A stretch of 62,676 nucleotides of DNA, counting the filler, from Actinomycetota bacterium (GTDB taxonomy: Bacteria > Actinomycetota > Acidimicrobiia > IMCC26256 > VFJJ01): the NCBI GenBank assembly GCA_009886115.1. It is 6 parts of 6 records of this genome, joined end to end, with 100 filler letters (N's around TTAATTAATTAA, not from the genome) between each part and the next. Parts side by side here need not be neighbours in the genome. Positions count along the whole stretch, not along the records: positions 6,617 to 21,685 come from VFJJ01000199.1; 5 more parts are not named here. One strand, 5' to 3'. Positions within the stretch are counted from its first letter, which is position 1. Every line of letters starts with the position of its first letter. A program made the position numbers and the translations under genes. The notes under the pieces are model-generated. The model searched no databases. It saw only the letters and a program-made list of their open reading frames with translations, and was not told the origin of the DNA. Shown piece by piece: positions 12,249 to 18,980 of the stretch.

Positions 12249-12520
12249 CGGGAGCCCACGTCGCTTGCCGGTTCCACGGCCTCGGTCGTCATTGCGGTCC
12301 CCCCGGGGGTGGCCCCACGTCGACTGCGGGCCACGGTTGCTCACCCGGTATCGGACGGCCACCGAGCGCGCTCTCACGGGTGCGTTCGCGCCGCTGCGAG
12401 CGGCGCCGCGGGTCTCCACAGCGGTCGTGACATCCGCCACCCGGGACCGGTTGGCGAGGGCGGTAGGGTCGCGCTGTGCCTCGACTCGGCCCCACCGAGA
12501 ACGCGTCGGTCGACTCCACC

Positions 12521-14155
12521 GTGACCGACCTCGACGATCTCCCCTTCCACGCCCGGTTCACGGCCGTGCTGCCCGGCGATCCCGAGCCGTCGAACCAGCG
12601 CCGCCAGGTGCACGGCGCCGCTTGGAGCCCGGTGCCGCCCACCCCGGTTGCCGGTCCCACGACGATCGCGTGGTCGCCCGAGGTTGCCGACCTCCTCGGC
12701 CTCGATCACCAACTCTGCCGCTCGGACGACTTCGCCCAGGTGTTCGCGGGAAACCGCTTACCCCGGGGCGCTGAGCCCTTCGCCGCCTGCTACGGCGGGC
12801 ACCAGTTCGGCAACTGGGCCGGCCAGCTCGGCGACGGTCGGGCCATCGCGCTGGGCGAGGTGACCGACCGCTTCGGCAATCCGCAGACCCTCCAGCTCAA
12901 GGGTGCGGGGCCCACACCGTACTCGCGAGGCGCCGACGGGCGGGCCGTCCTCCGGTCGTCGATTCGAGAGTTCCTCTGCAGCGAAGCCATGCACCACTTG
13001 GGAATTCCGACGACCCGGGCCTTGTCGCTCGTGCTCACGGGCGACGCCGTGGTGCGCGACATGCTCTACGACGGCCATCCCCGCCCCGAGCCGGGCGCCG
13101 TGGTGTGCCGGGTGGCGCCGTCGTTCACCCGCTTCGGGAACTTCCAGCTCCCCGCGGCCCGCGGCGATCTCGATCTGCTGCGGACGCTCGTGGAGTTCAC
13201 GATCAGCTCCGACTTCCCCCACCTGCTCGGCACCACCTCGGCGACGGTCGACGGCCCCGGCACACCGTCCGCCGACGGCCAACTCCCGGTCGGGGCCTGG
13301 TTCCGCGAGGTCTGCGAGCGGACAGCGACGATGGTGTTGGGCTGGATGCGCGTCGGCTTCGTCCATGGCGTGCTCAACACCGACAACATGTCGATCCTCG
13401 GCCTCACGATTGACTACGGCCCCTACGGATGGCTCGAGAGCTTCGATCCGGGCTGGACGCCGAACACGACCGACGCCGCCAACCGCCGGTATCGGTATGG
13501 CCATCAGCCGCAGATCGTGCACTGGAACCTGCTGCAGCTCGCCAATGCGCTGGTGCGTCTCACCGACGACCCCGCGGCGTTCGAGGCGGGACTCGACCAC
13601 TTCGTCGAGACGTACCAGCACGGCTTCCGGTCGATGATGGCCGAACGGCTCGGCTGGGGTGCGCCCCGAGACGACGACGAAGCGCTCGTCAGCAACCTGT
13701 TCGAGATCCTGGTGTCCACCGAGACCGACCAGGTGCTGTTCTTCCGTGACCTGGCGCGGGTGCCCGTCGATGCTCACGCTGCGATACCCGACGACGCGCT
13801 ACTCGCTCCATTGGCCGACGCCTGGTACCGGCCCGAGGAGCTCGTCGGCGACGTTCGAGCCGCAGTGGTGGCCTGGCTGCGGGCCTGGGCGGCCCGGGTC
13901 GTCGACGGCGGGCTGGGCGACGACGAACGGAGACGGCGGATGGACGCCGTCAACCCCCGGTTCGTGTTGCGCAACTACCTCGCCCAGGAAGCCATCGACC
14001 TGGCCGAGCGGGGCGACGGGTCACGGGTGATCGAGCTCCTCGACGTGCTGCGCCGTCCCTACGACGAACAGCCGGGGCGGGAGCAGTTCTCGACTCGGCG
14101 GCCGGAGTGGGCCCGCCAGCGGGTGGGCTGCTCGATGCTGTCGTGCAGCTCCTGA
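12521..14155 (+). CDS. selO: Protein adenylyltransferase SelO (YdiU)
   Basis: [65 protein letters not shown]-terminal CSMLSCSS. Confidence 0.96.
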
Positions 14156-14204
14156 GCCCGGCCAGGTTCGATCGCGCCCAGGCCCGCCAACCCACGATCG
14201 TGTC

Positions 14205-14723
14205 TCAGGGCGTGCCGACCCAGAAGCGGCCGTCGTCGTAGAAGCCGAAGTCGGCGAGCTCGCCAGGGACGACCCAGGAGTCGGTCCCCAACGCCACCAA
14301 CACCTTCTGGTAGTTCCACTTCATCACGTCGAGCGTGATCTCGAGGATCTGTGCATCGCTGAAGTGTCGGTGCAACTCGGCGGCGAGGTCGGCGTCGAGC
14401 GCGCCGGGTTGGGTCATGAGTGCGTCGGCGAGTCGCAGTGCCACCCGTTGACGGTCGGTCAGGTCACCGGCTGCGCTGGAGTCGTAGCCGTCGATCTGGT
14501 CGGCCAGGGTCTCGTCGAGGCCCGCCTGCTTGGCAACTGCCAAGCGCAACGACATTCACGTCCGGCAATCGTGATGGCGGGCACAGCGCAGCCGCACCAG
14601 CTCGGTGGTGACCGGGTCGACGGTGTCGAGCCGAACGGCCGCGTTCTGCCACTCCCCCAGCGCCGTCCCCAGTGTGCGCTCGGGCCCTGCGGCATCGGTC
14701 GGGACGCGTCGGCTGCGATCCAT
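14205..14723 (-). CDS. CMD/AhpD-like protein with in-frame TGA (candidate CxxU selenoprotein, 172 aa)
   Basis: VDPVTTELVRLRCARHHDCRT-TGA(14558-14556)-MSLRLAVAKQAGLDE...RQRVALRLADAL is one frame; TGATG coupling to the upstream gene. Confidence 0.75.
14528..14545 (-). promoter_or_regulatory. Candidate bacterial SECIS hairpin
   Basis: mRNA: UGA + 10 nt + GCUUGGC-AGUU-GCCAAGC, a perfect 7-bp stem with GU in the apical loop. Confidence 0.6.
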
Positions 14724-15199
14724 CACGTGTTCCCTTCGACGGTGCCGGCGAAGACCCGCTCCCACACCAGGCGCAGGCGTTGACGTTGCTCGATCACCAA
14801 CAGCGCGTTGGTGAAGTCGACCAGCCCTTGCACGCCGAGCTCGTCGGACACCGCGGCGGCAACGTGGTCTTCGAGCGAGGCGACGTCGATCACGAACTGC
14901 TCGCAGAAGGCGAGGCACGCTCGTTCGCGGGGCCCGAAACGCGCCGACGTGGGCCACGACGAGAGCTCGCTGATCGTGGCCTCGCCGAGCCCGTCGGCCA
15001 TCGCCGCCGGGGTGCGGACGGCCGACTCGGCATCGCATCCCAGCAGCATCGCCACCCGCAGCCGGCAGAGTTCGAGCAGGACCGGATCGACGACCGTCCA
15101 CGCAGCGTCGTGCGCGGCGCCGAGGTGCACGGCGACATCGGGCTGATCGGCGAGGACCAGCGCGAAGACCTCGCTCGTCGGCCCGGTTCGGAGGCTCAT
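14723..15199 (-). CDS. CMD/AhpD-like protein lacking CxxC
   Basis: VDPVLLELCRLRVAMLLGC...SWPTSARFGPRERACLAFCEQFVID. Confidence 0.8.
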   Translation of the reverse strand: MSLRTGPTSEVFALVLADQPDVAVHLGAAHDAAWTVVDPVLLELCRLRVAMLLGCDAESAVRTPAAMADGLGEATISELSSWPTSARFGPRERACLAFCEQFVIDVASLEDHVAAAVSDELGVQGLVDFTNALLVIEQRQRLRLVWERVFAGTVEGNT

Positions 15200-15265
15200 G
15201 GGCGCGAGGTTGCCACTCGTTCGCTGGCGTGTCGAGGCGGGCTCGAGGGAGCAGACGGGCACGAG

Positions 15266-16093
15266 CTATCGAGCCGCGGGCCAGCCGGGGAGGAGCCCGT
15301 GCCGCTTGCACACCGCCTGGGCGTGCACCATCTGGCCGAGATGACGCTCGGCGCCGGCGTCGCTCGCCAACCACCCGATGACCGCGCCCGCGACCTCGGG
15401 CGGGTCGCCCGGGAAGTGCTTGGCGTACTCGCGACCAGCATCGAGCGCGATGCTCCGCTCCGTCACGGTGTAACCAGGCTCCAGCGTGAAGGCCCGAATG
15501 CCCCGGCCCCTGAATTCCACATCGATGACGATCGCCAGTTGATGGAAGGCTGCCTTCGCGGCGCAGTGCACCAGGCTCCACCCGCCCTCGCCGGCAGGCG
15601 CAGGAGGCGGGACGAGCGCCGAGCCCGAGCCCAGGTTGATGATCGTGCCGCTCCCTCGCTCCAGCATGCTCGGCAGAACGAGCTGTGACAGGTGGAGCTG
15701 GTTCACGTAGTCGGCCTCGACGACCCGGGTCGCGATCTCGCAGTCGATGTCGAGGAGCTTGGCTTCGACGCCCGGGCCCGAGTACGGAGCGTTGTTGACG
15801 AGCACATCGACACGGCCCCATTCGGCCATGGTCCGTTCGAACGCCGCCGTGATCGAAGCCCGGTCCATCACGTCCATGGCGATGGGCAACGCTCGTCGTC
15901 CGACCGCGGCGATCTCGGCTGCGGTGGTGTCGAGGCTGCCCGGAATCGTGATCCCACGTTCCATCGAGTCGCCCTCGTGCACCGTGCGGCCCGTCACCAC
16001 CACATCGAAACCCCGAGCCGCCAGGGCCAGCGCGCCGCAGCGCCCGATACCTCGACTCGAGCCCGTCACCAACGCGACTCGGCGGCTGTCCAT
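15266..16093 (-). CDS. SDR oxidoreductase
   Basis: TGSSRGIG, DVLVNNA; atypical H-xxx-K at the usual YxxxK position. Confidence 0.88.
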   Translation of the reverse strand: MDSRRVALVTGSSRGIGRCGALALAARGFDVVVTGRTVHEGDSMERGITIPGSLDTTAAEIAAVGRRALPIAMDVMDRASITAAFERTMAEWGRVDVLVNNAPYSGPGVEAKLLDIDCEIATRVVEADYVNQLHLSQLVLPSMLERGSGTIINLGSGSALVPPPAPAGEGGWSLVHCAAKAAFHQLAIVIDVEFRGRGIRAFTLEPGYTVTERSIALDAGREYAKHFPGDPPEVAGAVIGWLASDAGAERHLGQMVHAQAVCKRHGLLPGWPAAR

Positions 16094-16253
16094 CGTCGTC
16101 TCCTCGGACCCTGCGGGGGTGGCTGGTGGTCGCTGACCCTACCCCGCGTTGCCACCGGCCTCGCCGGCCCGCTCACCGCCCGGCTCACCGTCGAGCGGGC
16201 ACCGACCACAGCCCATGTGCGACGATCAGCGCCCCTCCCGGTGAGGAGCACCA

Positions 16254-16718
16254 ATGCACGACTGGGAGATCGACGCTCATCTCCAGATCCGCAATCTCGT
16301 TGCCGGGTACGCCCAGTGCGCCGACTCCGGACGCTTCGAGGCCCTCGTCGCCATGTTCACCGACGACGCCGTGCTCGATGTGCCGGGCCTGGCCACGCAC
16401 CACGGACGAGCAGCGATCGCCGCGATGTTCGAGCGGGCCAAGGAGCACCTGAGCGGAGCCGACCCCGCAGCCGGAGCCAGCGCGGCGATCAGGCACCACG
16501 TGTCGAGCCACCACATCGAGATCGAGAGCCCGCAGCGGGCCCGGAGCTCGTGTTACTACTCGGCCCACATGGTCGGCGGAGTCGACCACTGGGGCCGCTA
16601 CCGCGACACGTTCGTCGCACTCGACGGTCGCTGGCTGTTCTCGCATCGACGGATTCTTCGCGATGGAGCGATCCCGGGAGGCTGGGGCTCACGGGGCGAC
16701 GAGTGGGTCGGTCGATGA
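16254..16718 (+). CDS. SnoaL/NTF2-like protein
   Basis: IRNLVAGYAQCADSGR...MFTDDA...IRHHVS...WGRYRD...WLFSHR. Confidence 0.85.
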   Translation: MHDWEIDAHLQIRNLVAGYAQCADSGRFEALVAMFTDDAVLDVPGLATHHGRAAIAAMFERAKEHLSGADPAAGASAAIRHHVSSHHIEIESPQRARSSCYYSAHMVGGVDHWGRYRDTFVALDGRWLFSHRRILRDGAIPGGWGSRGDEWVGR

Positions 16719-17012: not shown

Positions 17013-18980
17013 CCCGGGTTCCGCAGTTGATGGGCACATGAGGGCATCTCGGTGCGCGATCATGCTGGTCAGCTGGTTGCGGGGGGTCTGAAAGGTCCGA
17101 TAGTGTGGGCACACGACTTTGGTGGTGGTGCTTGCATTTGTTGGGTGTTTCTGCGATTGTGTGGGCATGTATTTACGGTCGACGCAACGCAAGAACCGTG
17201 ACGGCACGGTCGTTCGTTACGTGCAGCTCGCGCACAACCGGCGTGTCGATGGCGTGACCCAGGCCGAGGTGTTGTTGAACCTCGGCCGCGAAGACCTTCT
17301 GGATCCGGATGGTCTGCGACGGCTGGTCCGTTCGATCAACCGTTACCTCGGCGAACCTGATGCCGGCGATGACGGTGTGGCTGTCGTTGATGGGCTGTCG
17401 ATCGTGTCGTCGCGCCCACTCGGTGTCGCCTGGCTGCTCGATGGCCTGTGGCGCCAGCTCGGTGTCGACACCGCGTTGGCACAGGTGTTGGGCGGCCGCA
17501 GGTACACGACCGATATCGAGCGGGTCCTGTTCGCGCTCGTCGCGAACCGGGCGATCGACCCGGTATCGAAGTTGGCAGCCGCGGAGTGGGCTTCCAACGA
17601 TGTCGCGATCACTGGCCTGGAATCGATGGATGAGGATCAGGCGTATCGGGCGATGGACCTGCTCGTCGCGGCCGACGCTCAGGCGCATGTCCAAGAAGCG
17701 GTCTTCTTCGCGGTCGCTGACTTGTTGAACCTCGAGGTCGACTTGTTGTTCTTCGACACCACCTCGACCTACTTCGAGACCGAGACCGCGGACGAGTTCC
17801 GGCGGTTCGGGAAGTCGAAGGACTCACGTCCGGATCTGCCGCAGATCGTGATCGGTCTCGCTGTCACGCGTGAGGGGATCCCGGTGCGGTGTTGGGTGTG
17901 GCCGGGCAACACCAACGACAACAGCATCTTGCCCGAGGTCAAAGACGGGCTGCGCGGTTGGCGGCTCGGCCGGGTGGTGACCGTCGTCGATCGCGGGTTC
18001 TCGAGCGACAAGAATCTGGACTACCTGCGTCGCTCAGGTGGGCATTGGATCGCCGGTGAGAAGATGCGCGACGGCTCACCCGACGCCCAGGCCGCCCTGT
18101 CTCGTCAGGGCCGCTACCAGAGCGTCCGCGACAACCTCAGGGTCAAAGAAGTCCGCCTCGACGACGACACGGGCAAACGGTGGATCGTGTGCCACAACCC
18201 GTTCGAAGCCGAACGCGACCAAGCCCAACGTGAAGCAGCGCTGGCCCGGATCGAGGCCGAACTCGAACGCATTCGCGTCGGTCGCGAACGCGACGCCAAG
18301 AAGAAGACCAAGAACGGTCACAAGGTCAATGACGAGTCGCATCGCCTCGCCGAGTGCGCGCTACGCGATCACGTCTCACTCGGCCGTTGGCTGCGCCAGA
18401 CCCCGTCGGGCCGGCTCGTGATCGACCGGGCCAAGGTCACCGCCGAAGAGAGGCTCGACGGGAAATATCTGCTCTCGACGTCGGACCCTGACCTCCCGGC
18501 GGAGGACGTCGCGCTCGGCTACAAGAACCTCCTCGAAGCCGAACGAGGGTTCCGTGACCTCAAGTCCACCCTCGATCTCCGGCCCGTCTACCACCGCATC
18601 GAACCACGCATCCGCTCCCACGTGCTGCTCTGCTGGCTCGCCCTGCTACTCATCCGCGTCGCTGAACGACGCACCGGAGACACCTGGCGGCGCATCGCGA
18701 TCGAGCTCGGCCGCGTCCACGCCGTCACCCTGACCAGCAGCGCCGGGACCGTCGTGCAGACCACCCCACTCACACCGGCCCAACAAGCCATTGTTGACGC
18801 CTGCGGCGTGACCGCACCACCCCGCGTCACCCACCTCCACACCGCCTGACCAGGCGCGACACGCTCAAACAGGGCAGCTCAACACGTGGACACACGCGGC
18901 CCGCGCCCCGAACAGCACGTCACCCCAGCTCACACCCCCGAAACCGCCACAACGTCTGCCCACCAACTGCGGAACCCGGG
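17013..18980 (+). mobile_element. IS1634-family insertion sequence (1968 bp)
   Basis: 24-bp terminal IRs CCCGGGTTCCGCAGTTG(A/G)TGGGCA with 1 mismatch; 5-bp TSD GTTCA at 17008-17012 and 18981-18985. Confidence 0.93.
17167..18849 (+). CDS. IS1634-family DDE transposase
   Basis: MYLRSTQRKNRDG, FFDTTSTYFE, GKSKDSRPDLPQ, VVDRGF, ERGFRDLK..LDLRPVYHR. Confidence 0.93.
   Translation: MYLRSTQRKNRDGTVVRYVQLAHNRRVDGVTQAEVLLNLGREDLLDPDGLRRLVRSINRYLGEPDAGDDGVAVVDGLSIVSSRPLGVAWLLDGLWRQLGVDTALAQVLGGRRYTTDIERVLFALVANRAIDPVSKLAAAEWASNDVAITGLESMDEDQAYRAMDLLVAADAQAHVQEAVFFAVADLLNLEVDLLFFDTTSTYFETETADEFRRFGKSKDSRPDLPQIVIGLAVTREGIPVRCWVWPGNTNDNSILPEVKDGLRGWRLGRVVTVVDRGFSSDKNLDYLRRSGGHWIAGEKMRDGSPDAQAALSRQGRYQSVRDNLRVKEVRLDDDTGKRWIVCHNPFEAERDQAQREAALARIEAELERIRVGRERDAKKKTKNGHKVNDESHRLAECALRDHVSLGRWLRQTPSGRLVIDRAKVTAEERLDGKYLLSTSDPDLPAEDVALGYKNLLEAERGFRDLKSTLDLRPVYHRIEPRIRSHVLLCWLALLLIRVAERRTGDTWRRIAIELGRVHAVTLTSSAGTVVQTTPLTPAQQAIVDACGVTAPPRVTHLHTA

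Follow-up and report, generated by a model that had tools for sequence, protein, structure and literature searches.

Does the single in-frame TGA in an AhpD-like gene of an Acidimicrobiia genome end a short protein, or is it read as selenocysteine (Sec, U)? The gene lies in a stretch of 62,676 nucleotides (nt), filler included, from the Actinomycetota bacterium assembly GCA_009886115.1, which is referred to here at its full length as the window. Two open reading frames (ORFs) found there with translation table 11, 14556..15821, which ends in HHDCRT, and 14205..14555, which starts with MSLR, are in the same frame on the minus strand, and a first-pass annotation of this DNA had taken them for one frame split by a single TGA at 14558-14556. 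Translation bears this out. From the ATG at 14723, the frame 14723..14208 (-) with the TGA read as U encodes 172 residues with U56, in the motif H-H-D-C-R-T-U-M-S-L-R, and the minus-strand sequence at the site is CAC GAT TGC CGG ACG TGA ATG TCG TTG CGC TTG GCA GTT GCC AAG CAG. We conclude that this is very probably one gene for a 172-residue thiol-selenol oxidoreductase of the AhpD/CMD fold, in which UGA56 is predicted to be decoded as Sec, because the frame, a conserved and covarying hairpin, the Sec machinery of the genome, the alternation of Cys and Sec among homologs, and the AhpD-like fold of a Cys homolog point the same way. The parts of the locus are the following.

14205..14723, minus strand: predicted selenoprotein gene, CMD/AhpD-like, 172 codons and the stop TGA (14207-14205), from translation, Pfam, PDB profile matches and Cys homologs
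14556..14558, minus strand: in-frame UGA, predicted selenocysteine U56 at the second position of CxxC; TGA in 149 of 160 related loci and unchanged in the contigs of sequencing runs X3 and X5
14565..14567, minus strand: Cys53 codon TGC, the predicted partner thiol of the CxxU pair; Cys invariant in homologs
14528..14545, minus strand: predicted core of a bacterial selenocysteine insertion sequence (SECIS), a 7-bp stem with loop AGUU that encodes R-L-A-V-A-K, from folding energy, compensatory changes, and conserved loop and spacing
14723..15262, minus strand: partner gene, a 179-codon CMD-family paralog with a degenerate site, from Pfam CMD, synteny and fusions

TGA would have two meanings within the selenoprotein gene, Sec at position 56 and stop at position 173 (14207-14205). 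The gene is found on one contig (C9:7484-8234) of the assembly, which comprises 5.45 Mb in 224 contigs and is 95.6% complete. The window itself is composed of several contigs, with contig C11 at 32474-53509, so synteny past contig ends is not to be read from it.

Cys and Sec alternate at the same position among homologs. A protein search covered 5.8 billion sequences, and its counts rest on 120 listed matches. Ninety-one of these were full-length (about 160-300 residues), reading H-D-C-R-x-C-x-S-L-R, and the full-length Cys homologs cover 95-100% of the window protein. Another 28 were proteins of 107-126 residues with their N-terminus at the Sec position or just past it, 24 of them beginning with MSLR, and the remaining one was a mis-framed version of the truncated form, so the suspicion that annotation pipelines split this gene was justified. 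The TGA had also been placed at the second Cys of the CxxC motif, and it does align there, where the homologs have C-R-x-C and PA0269 from Pseudomonas aeruginosa has C-A-Y-C. At the DNA level, 80 loci from species genomes and 80 from metagenomes were collected, and each tblastn alignment was walked to the codon opposite U56. All 160 loci align across this codon, which is TGA in 149, TGC in 10 and TGT in one, and the Cys/TGA alternation that the first-pass annotation had proposed to look for is therefore present. By record title, the genome loci belong to Acidimicrobiia (57), Actinomycetes (9), Actinomycetota without a stated class (8), and other or no groups (6). The nearest relative (L021, 95% protein identity) has the same TGA and hairpin. 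In the 20 codons upstream of the TGA, the entropy at codon positions 1, 2 and 3 is 0.46, 0.17 and 1.21 bits, respectively (116 distinct sequences).

The two forms were compared in a FastTree phylogeny of 222 distinct proteins (129 Sec and 93 Cys forms), from which sequences below 140 residues, sequences with more than two X, and duplicates were left out. Only two changes of Sec/Cys state are needed on this tree, and four when the columns of residues 53-67 are removed, whereas shuffling of the labels gives 57 or more. Nested among the Sec forms are a Cys clade of 47 members (support 98) and a single Cys protein that keeps C-M-S-V-R (P0057); the tree is unrooted and therefore does not give the direction of the change between Cys and Sec. 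Cys53 is present in every one of the sequences compared (129 of 129 Sec and 93 of 93 Cys forms). His51, Cys53 and Thr55 are invariant within the Sec forms, and His51, Cys53, Cys/Sec56 and Arg60 across both.

Directly downstream of the TGA is a hairpin with a 5' arm GCTTGGC (14545-14539), a loop AGTT (14538-14535) and a 3' arm GCCAAGC (14534-14528), all on the minus strand, the stem being 10 nt and the loop 17 nt away from the TGA. The perfect GCUUGGC-AGUU-GCCAAGC hairpin 10 nt after the TGA that had been noticed earlier is thus located exactly by its coordinates. In isolation (18 nt) it folds with -11.1 kcal/mol (z -3.33), a value reached by six of 200 shuffled sequences, and a 39-nt stretch containing it folds with -16.4 kcal/mol. 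A hairpin in a single sequence is suggestive, a hint only, and its significance comes from conservation. For that purpose 116 distinct segments of 63 nt were aligned, namely the window and 115 loci, with identical sequences counted once and one locus with an N (L098) left out. The RNAalifold consensus contains six pairs, four of which show compensatory changes, given here by alignment columns.

Pair 21-36: CG 95, UA 16, GC 3, UG 2
Pair 22-35: CG 53, UA 32, UG 6, GU 1; 24 broken
Pair 23-34: UA 89, UG 7, GC 6; 14 broken
Pair 24-33: GC 107, AU 8, GU 1

The seventh pair (20-37) is formed in only 71 of 116 sequences. Across the seven-pair helix, 89.7% of cells are paired, and 66 cells show a double change as opposed to 21.4 +/- 3.1 after shuffling (none of 500 shuffles reaches the observed number), with a covariation score of 0.249 versus 0.122. 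When the 3' arm is shifted by -3 to +3 columns, pairing falls to 20-59%, all six shifts being far worse. The change of pair 24-33 from G-C to A-U in eight sequences is brought about by Leu CTG becoming CTA together with Ala GCC becoming GCT, and the covariation therefore lies partly at synonymous sites. Third codon positions have an entropy of 0.36-0.79 bits within the hairpin, compared to 1.16-1.72 before it and 1.84-1.95 after it. The constraint is also visible in the protein, where residues 60-65 (R-L-A-V-A-K/R) have a mean entropy of 0.46 bits in the 129 Sec forms and 1.73 bits in the 93 Cys forms, while the whole-protein means are 1.30 and 1.44 bits, respectively. The loop is at the same offset in all 149 TGA loci, as AGTT in 115 and GGTC in 34, and the hairpin of the TGA forms was not found in the Cys-form loci compared with them. 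Covariation among TGA-bearing homologs had been set as a test of the hairpin in the first-pass annotation; the hairpin does covary, and it is absent from the Cys forms. This family is a clean natural case of an RNA signal constraining a protein, with R-L-A-V-A-K/R frozen in Sec forms and free in Cys forms.

The hairpin conforms in shape to the bSECIS model. As given in the Fig. 2 legend of PMC13188914, this model has a loop of 3-9 nt and an upper stem of 4-16 bp, and the hairpin has a loop of 4 nt and a stem of 7 bp, or 6 bp in the family consensus. The available text of the same article puts a G at the first or second nucleotide of the loop, mostly with a G or U after it, and the loop is AGUU or GGUC in all 149 TGA loci. 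It further gives a distance of 16-37 nt from UGA to loop and a minimum free energy of -7.5 kcal/mol or lower; here the distance is 17 nt, with an identical offset across the 149 TGA loci, and the 18-nt hairpin has -11.1 kcal/mol. Compared to the fdhF-type SECIS of E. coli and the bSECIS consensus, the element is alike in being a hairpin inside the coding region directly 3' of the UGA, and in its small apical loop with G then U near its start. It differs from the fdhF type in that the family conserves just a stem of 6-7 bp, here the predicted SelB site, whereas a 5-bp lower stem is predicted in the window copy but lies outside the RNAalifold consensus.

The most obvious alternative is that the UGA is a true stop, and that the locus encodes a 55-residue peptide and a 116-residue protein re-initiated at the adjacent ATG. 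An ATG does follow the TGA directly in the window, and gene callers yield proteins of this kind (the 28 of 120 listed matches with 107-126 residues). However, ATG is found after the TGA in only 27 of 149 TGA loci, where CTG (71), CTC (27) and others (24; AAG, CGT, CTA, CGC, CTT, CAG, CGA) make up the rest, and 59 of the 149 TGA loci have their first in-frame start codon (ATG, GTG or TTG) at least eight codons downstream. A split would also break up the fold and separate the two members of the CxxC/U redox pair, the 116-residue piece has no Pfam match by itself, and this explanation accounts neither for the covarying hairpin nor for the Cys codon in homologs. We therefore regard two separate genes as very improbable.

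Decoding of the UGA as Sec would need a dedicated machinery, and the genome encodes all of the components that were searched for.

selA: contig C73, 458.7 bits, over cut-off
selB, adjoining selA: contig C73, 293.7 bits (320.5 with the C-terminal piece), over cut-off
selD: contig C57, 398.4 bits, over cut-off
tRNA-Sec, anticodon TCA: contig C73, 66.2 bits, over cut-off, also called tRNA-SeC by ARAGORN

The presence of selA, selB, selD and tRNA-Sec answers a check proposed with the original prediction of a 172-residue selenoenzyme, which is supported in turn by frame, hairpin, machinery and homologs. The same prediction had described Sec use as patchy in Actinomycetota. This does not hold for the class to which the genome belongs, as an even sample of the class (151 genomes, source genome included) had selA over cut-off in 101, and Sec decoding seems to be a majority trait there. 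The AhpD-like gene was found in three of these 151 genomes at E<=1e-20, each time with one internal TGA. Within one genus (g31), selA was present in 34 of 35 genomes of about 1 Mb. In addition, 50 genomes were tested by way of the loci L021-L070, comprising 49 TGA forms and one Cys form (L035); these are related genomes and not independent. selA was detected in 47 of the 50, all of them among the 49 that carry TGA, and it was not found in G165, the sole Cys-form genome of this batch. Record titles assign the Acidimicrobiia that carry the AhpD-like selenoprotein to soil, freshwater and sea. A 2026 preprint reports Sec machinery in all 84 Actinomarina genomes, calls it previously unreported there, and leaves AhpD unmentioned. 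Within our full-text search, Sec decoding in Acidimicrobiia was noted for Actinomarina only, in this preprint, and the 101 of 151 sampled genomes with selA show that it is common in the class.

A second alternative retains a single protein, with the UGA read through as an ordinary residue (Cys or Trp) by a near-cognate tRNA and the hairpin acting as a general stimulator instead of a SelB site. UGA can be mis-read at a low level, which is well established, and the hairpin is short. Against this, the full Sec machinery is present in the genome, and the loop, at a distance of 17 nt from the UGA, always has a G within its first two nucleotides with a U after it, in line with the bSECIS model. Hairpins built in the same way follow the in-frame UGAs in the FdhA-like, UGSC and ResA-like candidates of the assembly (described below), and the one Cys-codon relative tested is without detected selA, while 47 of 49 TGA relatives have it. 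Taken together, these findings leave little credence to ordinary read-through, which would account for neither the SelB-type loop nor the association with selA.

The TGA is also seen outside of this assembly. A contig from run X3 (another sample) and a 3703-nt contig from run X5 (another study, depth 18.3) both span the TGA and hairpin unchanged, and the nearest variant in X5, at 14523, is a synonymous change of GCG to GCT. Run X1, which may be the source sample, was left out of this count, and the small-share runs X7-X17 were not used. The two contigs meet the doubt, raised when the gene was first noticed, whether the TGA was peculiar to one assembly. A pseudogene with a nonsense mutation, or a sequencing or assembly error, would be a common artefact for a lone in-frame stop in a draft metagenome-assembled genome (MAG) of 224 contigs, but the same TGA in 149 independent loci, including the 95% identical relative, and in the X3 and X5 contigs, along with upstream codon periodicity and protein conservation on both sides that signify purifying selection, effectively refute this explanation.

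Several observations weigh against the selenoprotein, or lessen the force of the evidence for it. The total folding energy of the 71-nt context is ordinary (z -0.84), with 43 of 200 shuffled sequences folding as well. The 149:11 ratio of TGA to Cys codons is biased, the scan patterns having come from an alignment rich in Sec-type sequences. selA was not detected in two TGA-carrying genomes, G161 and the 1.5-Mb G191 (MAG completeness not established), and with selA common in the class, its co-occurrence with the TGA discriminates only modestly. The window protein is below the curated cut-off of every model that it matched (PF02627, TIGR01926, NF041047 and NF053654). The sole contig from an RNA library (run X6, 238 nt, depth 2) covers 14100-14320, misses the UGA and could be DNA carry-over, and is thus not evidence of expression. 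An Rfam search of 14150-14800 with E up to 10 gave no match, which we weigh neither for nor against, since bacterial SECIS elements are poorly represented in Rfam according to the 2026 Actinomarina preprint. Finally, the heteromer discussed below is inferred, as are the redox mechanism and the nucleophilic role of Sec56.

What kind of protein does the gene encode? The Pfam CMD model (PF02627) scores 20.9 bits on the window protein, compared to a gathering score of 23, and the NCBIfam models NF053654 ('YciW-related (seleno)protein'), TIGR01926 and NF041047 reach 36 bits versus a cut-off of 310, 27.8 versus 81.8, and 24.2 versus 110, respectively. NF041238 was absent among NCBIfam matches at E<=0.01. 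Membership in the AhpD/CMD CxxU selenoproteins therefore stands at the superfamily level only, as all curated cut-offs were missed. A profile of 63 full-length sequences matched, in the PDB, the PA0269 chains 2ijc and 2o4d (E 3.5e-10), 7xw1, Atu0492 (2gmy) and 3c1l, as well as the CMD-fold debrominase Bmp8 weakly (E 1.6e-3), and aligned the CxxC of the family to C-A-Y-C-V-N-M-H of PA0269. For structure prediction we used the natural Cys homolog P0004, which is 56-58% identical to the window protein. Its AlphaFold model has a predicted local distance difference test (pLDDT) of 93.4 and a predicted template modelling score (pTM) of 0.89, and a Foldseek search with it gave 23 PDB matches at E<=0.001, all listed ones being AhpD/CMD-fold chains. 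The best matches were 2o4d and 7xw1 (about 1.7e-6), 2ijc and 2gmy, with E from about 2e-6 to 2e-5 and target-normalised template modelling scores (TM-scores) of 0.77-0.78. The modelled fold of the family is that of AhpD/CMD, closest to AhpD from P. aeruginosa.

Its active site departs from the AhpD pattern. P. aeruginosa AhpD/PA0269 (7xw1, 2o4d, 2ijc) and Atu0492 (2gmy) from Agrobacterium are the nearest solved folds to the modelled Cys homolog. In the window protein the site reads H51-D52-C53-R-T-U56-M-S58-L-R60, and in the family H-D-C-x-x-U/C-x-S-x-R, with an invariant His at -2 from the first Cys and Arg60 at +4, where PA0269 (C-A-Y-C-V-N-M-H, CxxCxxxH) has His. AhpD proper is characterised by a His four residues past its second Cys; here that position is Arg60 in all 129 Sec and 93 Cys forms. 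The solved proteins of the PA0269/Atu0492 type also differ in having Cys instead of Sec, a length of about 145 residues, and no C-terminal beta-hairpin. AhpD from Mycobacterium tuberculosis (1knc, 1gu9), the founding enzyme, likewise has a CxxC pair in an all-helical CMD-type domain, but it is a remote structural match only, with Foldseek E of 1.1-1.7 and TM-scores of 0.26-0.33.

By comparison with known bacterial Sec insertion, SelB carrying Sec-tRNA(Sec) would bind the small hairpin, with its (A/G)GU(U/C) loop 17 nt after the UGA, while the UGA is in the ribosomal A site, and would deliver Sec while competing with release factor 2. To judge from AhpD-type CxxC proteins, Sec56 would be the attacking nucleophile, and Cys53 may resolve the adduct to give a selenenylsulfide that some reductant would recycle. 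AhpD chemistry is presumed to be a thiol-disulfide relay to a peroxiredoxin, and our best guess for the substrate is a peroxide or a peroxiredoxin-type disulfide. There is no AhpC gene beside the cassette, the neighbours in the window being a short-chain dehydrogenase (SDR), SelO and a transposase; ahpC was looked for among these neighbours only.

A conserved partner gene sets this branch of the superfamily apart. The partner (Pfam CMD score 36.6 bits; 28% identity to P0004 over 99 residues) is encoded directly upstream, and its stop TGA (14725-14723) has one base in common with the ATG of the selenoprotein, which is translationally coupled to it. A partner homolog was directly upstream on the same strand in all 152 loci with room for one (142 TGA and 10 Cys), the other eight being without room. 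Opposite the H-D-C-x-x-U of the selenoprotein, the partner has the motif L-G-C-x-x-E, with Gly in 48, Cys in 33 and Glu in 46 of 50 aligned partners. Its Glu121, Asp126 and Val127 are invariant, and Cys116 is found in 45 of 50. Four of the 120 listed matches are single ORFs that join both domains (P0021, P0031, P0060 and P0107), and a search for longer proteins with P0004 returned 20 of 306-346 residues at E<=1e-10, all Cys forms, 16 of which carry a partner-like N-terminal domain ahead of the CxxC domain. Because the genes are coupled, and because many Cys-type relatives have the domains fused, the products of both genes probably combine into one two-domain enzyme, a heteromer suggested by synteny and fusions. 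A model of the natural fusion P0123 (alignment of 18) has a pLDDT of 85.6 and a pTM of 0.84, with a disordered linker at 151-166, and hints that the domains pack in a defined way.

We also looked for known proteins that resemble such a fusion. Sestrin2 contains two AhpD-like halves. No chain was found at E<=0.001 in a Foldseek search with the whole P0123 model, and human Sestrin2 (5dj4), the top full-length match, was too weak to be accepted (E 0.011, TM-score about 0.5, root mean square deviation 12 Å). It shares with the natural fusions two CMD/AhpD-like domains, one of which keeps CxxC, and this is at most a likeness of architecture, not of homology or domain arrangement. As a tentative proposal, which we hold to be possible and on balance doubtful, the cassette might be an undescribed, obligate two-subunit selenoenzyme of the AhpD type, a sestrin-like CMD pair with a single redox centre. 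It would be composed of a catalytic subunit with H-D-C-x-x-U-x-S-x-R and a paralog with L-G-C-x-x-E, an invariant E-x-x-x-x-D-V and the near-invariant Cys116. The altered site, with Arg for the AhpD-type His, would in that case imply a substrate other than the classical AhpC disulfide. If this is true, the cassette would be a simple model, in bacteria, of AhpD-like proteins that have two domains and one active centre.

As a selenoprotein, the gene is of a known kind. That CxxU AhpD-like selenoproteins had already been described was stated from the outset, and they have been established since 2005, when, in the available text of the Sargasso Sea survey (PMC1088965), 27 'AhpD-like' (COG2128) and four 'CMD domain-containing' CxxU sequences were counted. 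The available part of the 2008 Global Ocean Sampling study (PMC2398784) lists 299 'AhpD-like 1' and 70 'AhpD-like 2' sequences, and AhpD-like selenoproteins are also seen in a table of a 2026 review (PMC13188914) and in BSepDB (PMC13326102), as far as the available text of each goes. In the available text of these sources, Actinobacteria, Actinomycetota and Acidimicrobi* are not named in PMC13188914 or PMC13326102, and Actinobacteria is not named in PMC2398784. The family studied here and the CxxU families of the marine surveys, as the available text describes them, have in common the CMD/AhpD fold, Sec at the second CxxC position, abundant Cys homologs, a small hairpin with an apical-loop G right after the UGA, and routine mis-annotation. 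The present branch differs from them in its conserved partner gene and in falling below the cut-offs of TIGR01926, PF02627, NF041047 and NF053654, though the surveys may already include it.

The gene is thus a well-supported selenoprotein, its UGA almost certainly read as Sec, that corrects annotation and adds no mechanism; the conserved degenerate partner and the His-to-Arg change of the site are all that goes beyond re-annotation. The practical outcome is an annotation fix, as the gene is widespread in Acidimicrobiia, yet databases hold mostly fragments of ~110 residues without the active site. The branch is untouched by curated models, none of those matched reaching its cut-off, and is systematically truncated in databases.

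Other ORFs of the assembly may also encode selenoproteins. The genome was scanned for TGA and hairpin in a coding context, followed by hidden Markov model (HMM) scans of the read-through ORFs. Run without a coding filter, a generic scan for TGA and hairpin yielded 879 candidates and was of no use. A filter on GC content at third codon positions kept eight candidates and lost the AhpD-like gene itself, so the list is surely incomplete, and two of the eight, those on C160 and C203, appear to be false positives. The HMM scans assigned seven further read-through ORFs of the assembly to families. An FdhA-like candidate (TIGR01591, 644.3 bits versus a cut-off of 666.25) has the site SCNRT-U-HAPSV, four candidate paralogs belong to the UGSC family (PF24696, 104.5-151.7 bits), and a ResA-like WAxxUGC candidate matches NF041054 (249.6 bits versus a cut-off of 300); UGSC and ResA-like WAxxUGC are both NCBIfam models named as (seleno)proteins. 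The hairpins of these candidates are built alike, with a stem of 7 bp beginning 11-13 nt past the UGA and a small loop that contains GU. The six candidates (FdhA-like, four UGSC and ResA-like; loci L181 and L183-L187) and the seventh are located as follows.

C80:17940-19892, minus strand
C101:8695-9738, minus strand
C149:2897-3451, minus strand
C179:3730-4452, plus strand
C1:7564-8217, plus strand
C168:5428-6597, minus strand
C94:11678-12391, plus strand: MerB-like (alkylmercury lyase) candidate ORF, locus L182, in-frame TGA at ...DDIVFT-U-GSMNLF

The MerB-like ORF is the least certain candidate of the seven. Its hairpin, CUCUUCC-GGUC-GGAGGAG, starts 12 nt after the TGA, and it matches PF03243 with 91 bits and NF040728 (SaoL) with 50.6 bits versus a cut-off of 140. 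The 2026 review, in its available text (PMC13188914), lists a MerB-like SaoL selenoprotein with a CU motif, whereas in this ORF a Thr precedes the U.

A scan of 13900-16400 for promoters and terminators found nothing. Neighbouring genes were compared across the 160 loci within a flank of 1.5 kb per locus. Convergent to the selenoprotein gene is a gene for a SelO-family protein adenylyltransferase (12476-14155, plus strand; PF02696, 396.3 bits), a Cys-type homolog of eukaryotic selenoprotein O. A functional link to it was considered and rejected, since a SelO homolog is near the gene in just one of the 160 loci, and the adjacency looks coincidental. On the other side, the short-chain dehydrogenase gene (15266-16093, minus strand) ends 4 nt before the partner start and may share an operon with it, and an SDR homolog is nearby in only 18 of the 160 loci. 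About 1 kb beyond the SDR gene is an ORF for a DDE transposase (17119-18849, plus strand; PF01609, 44.4 bits).

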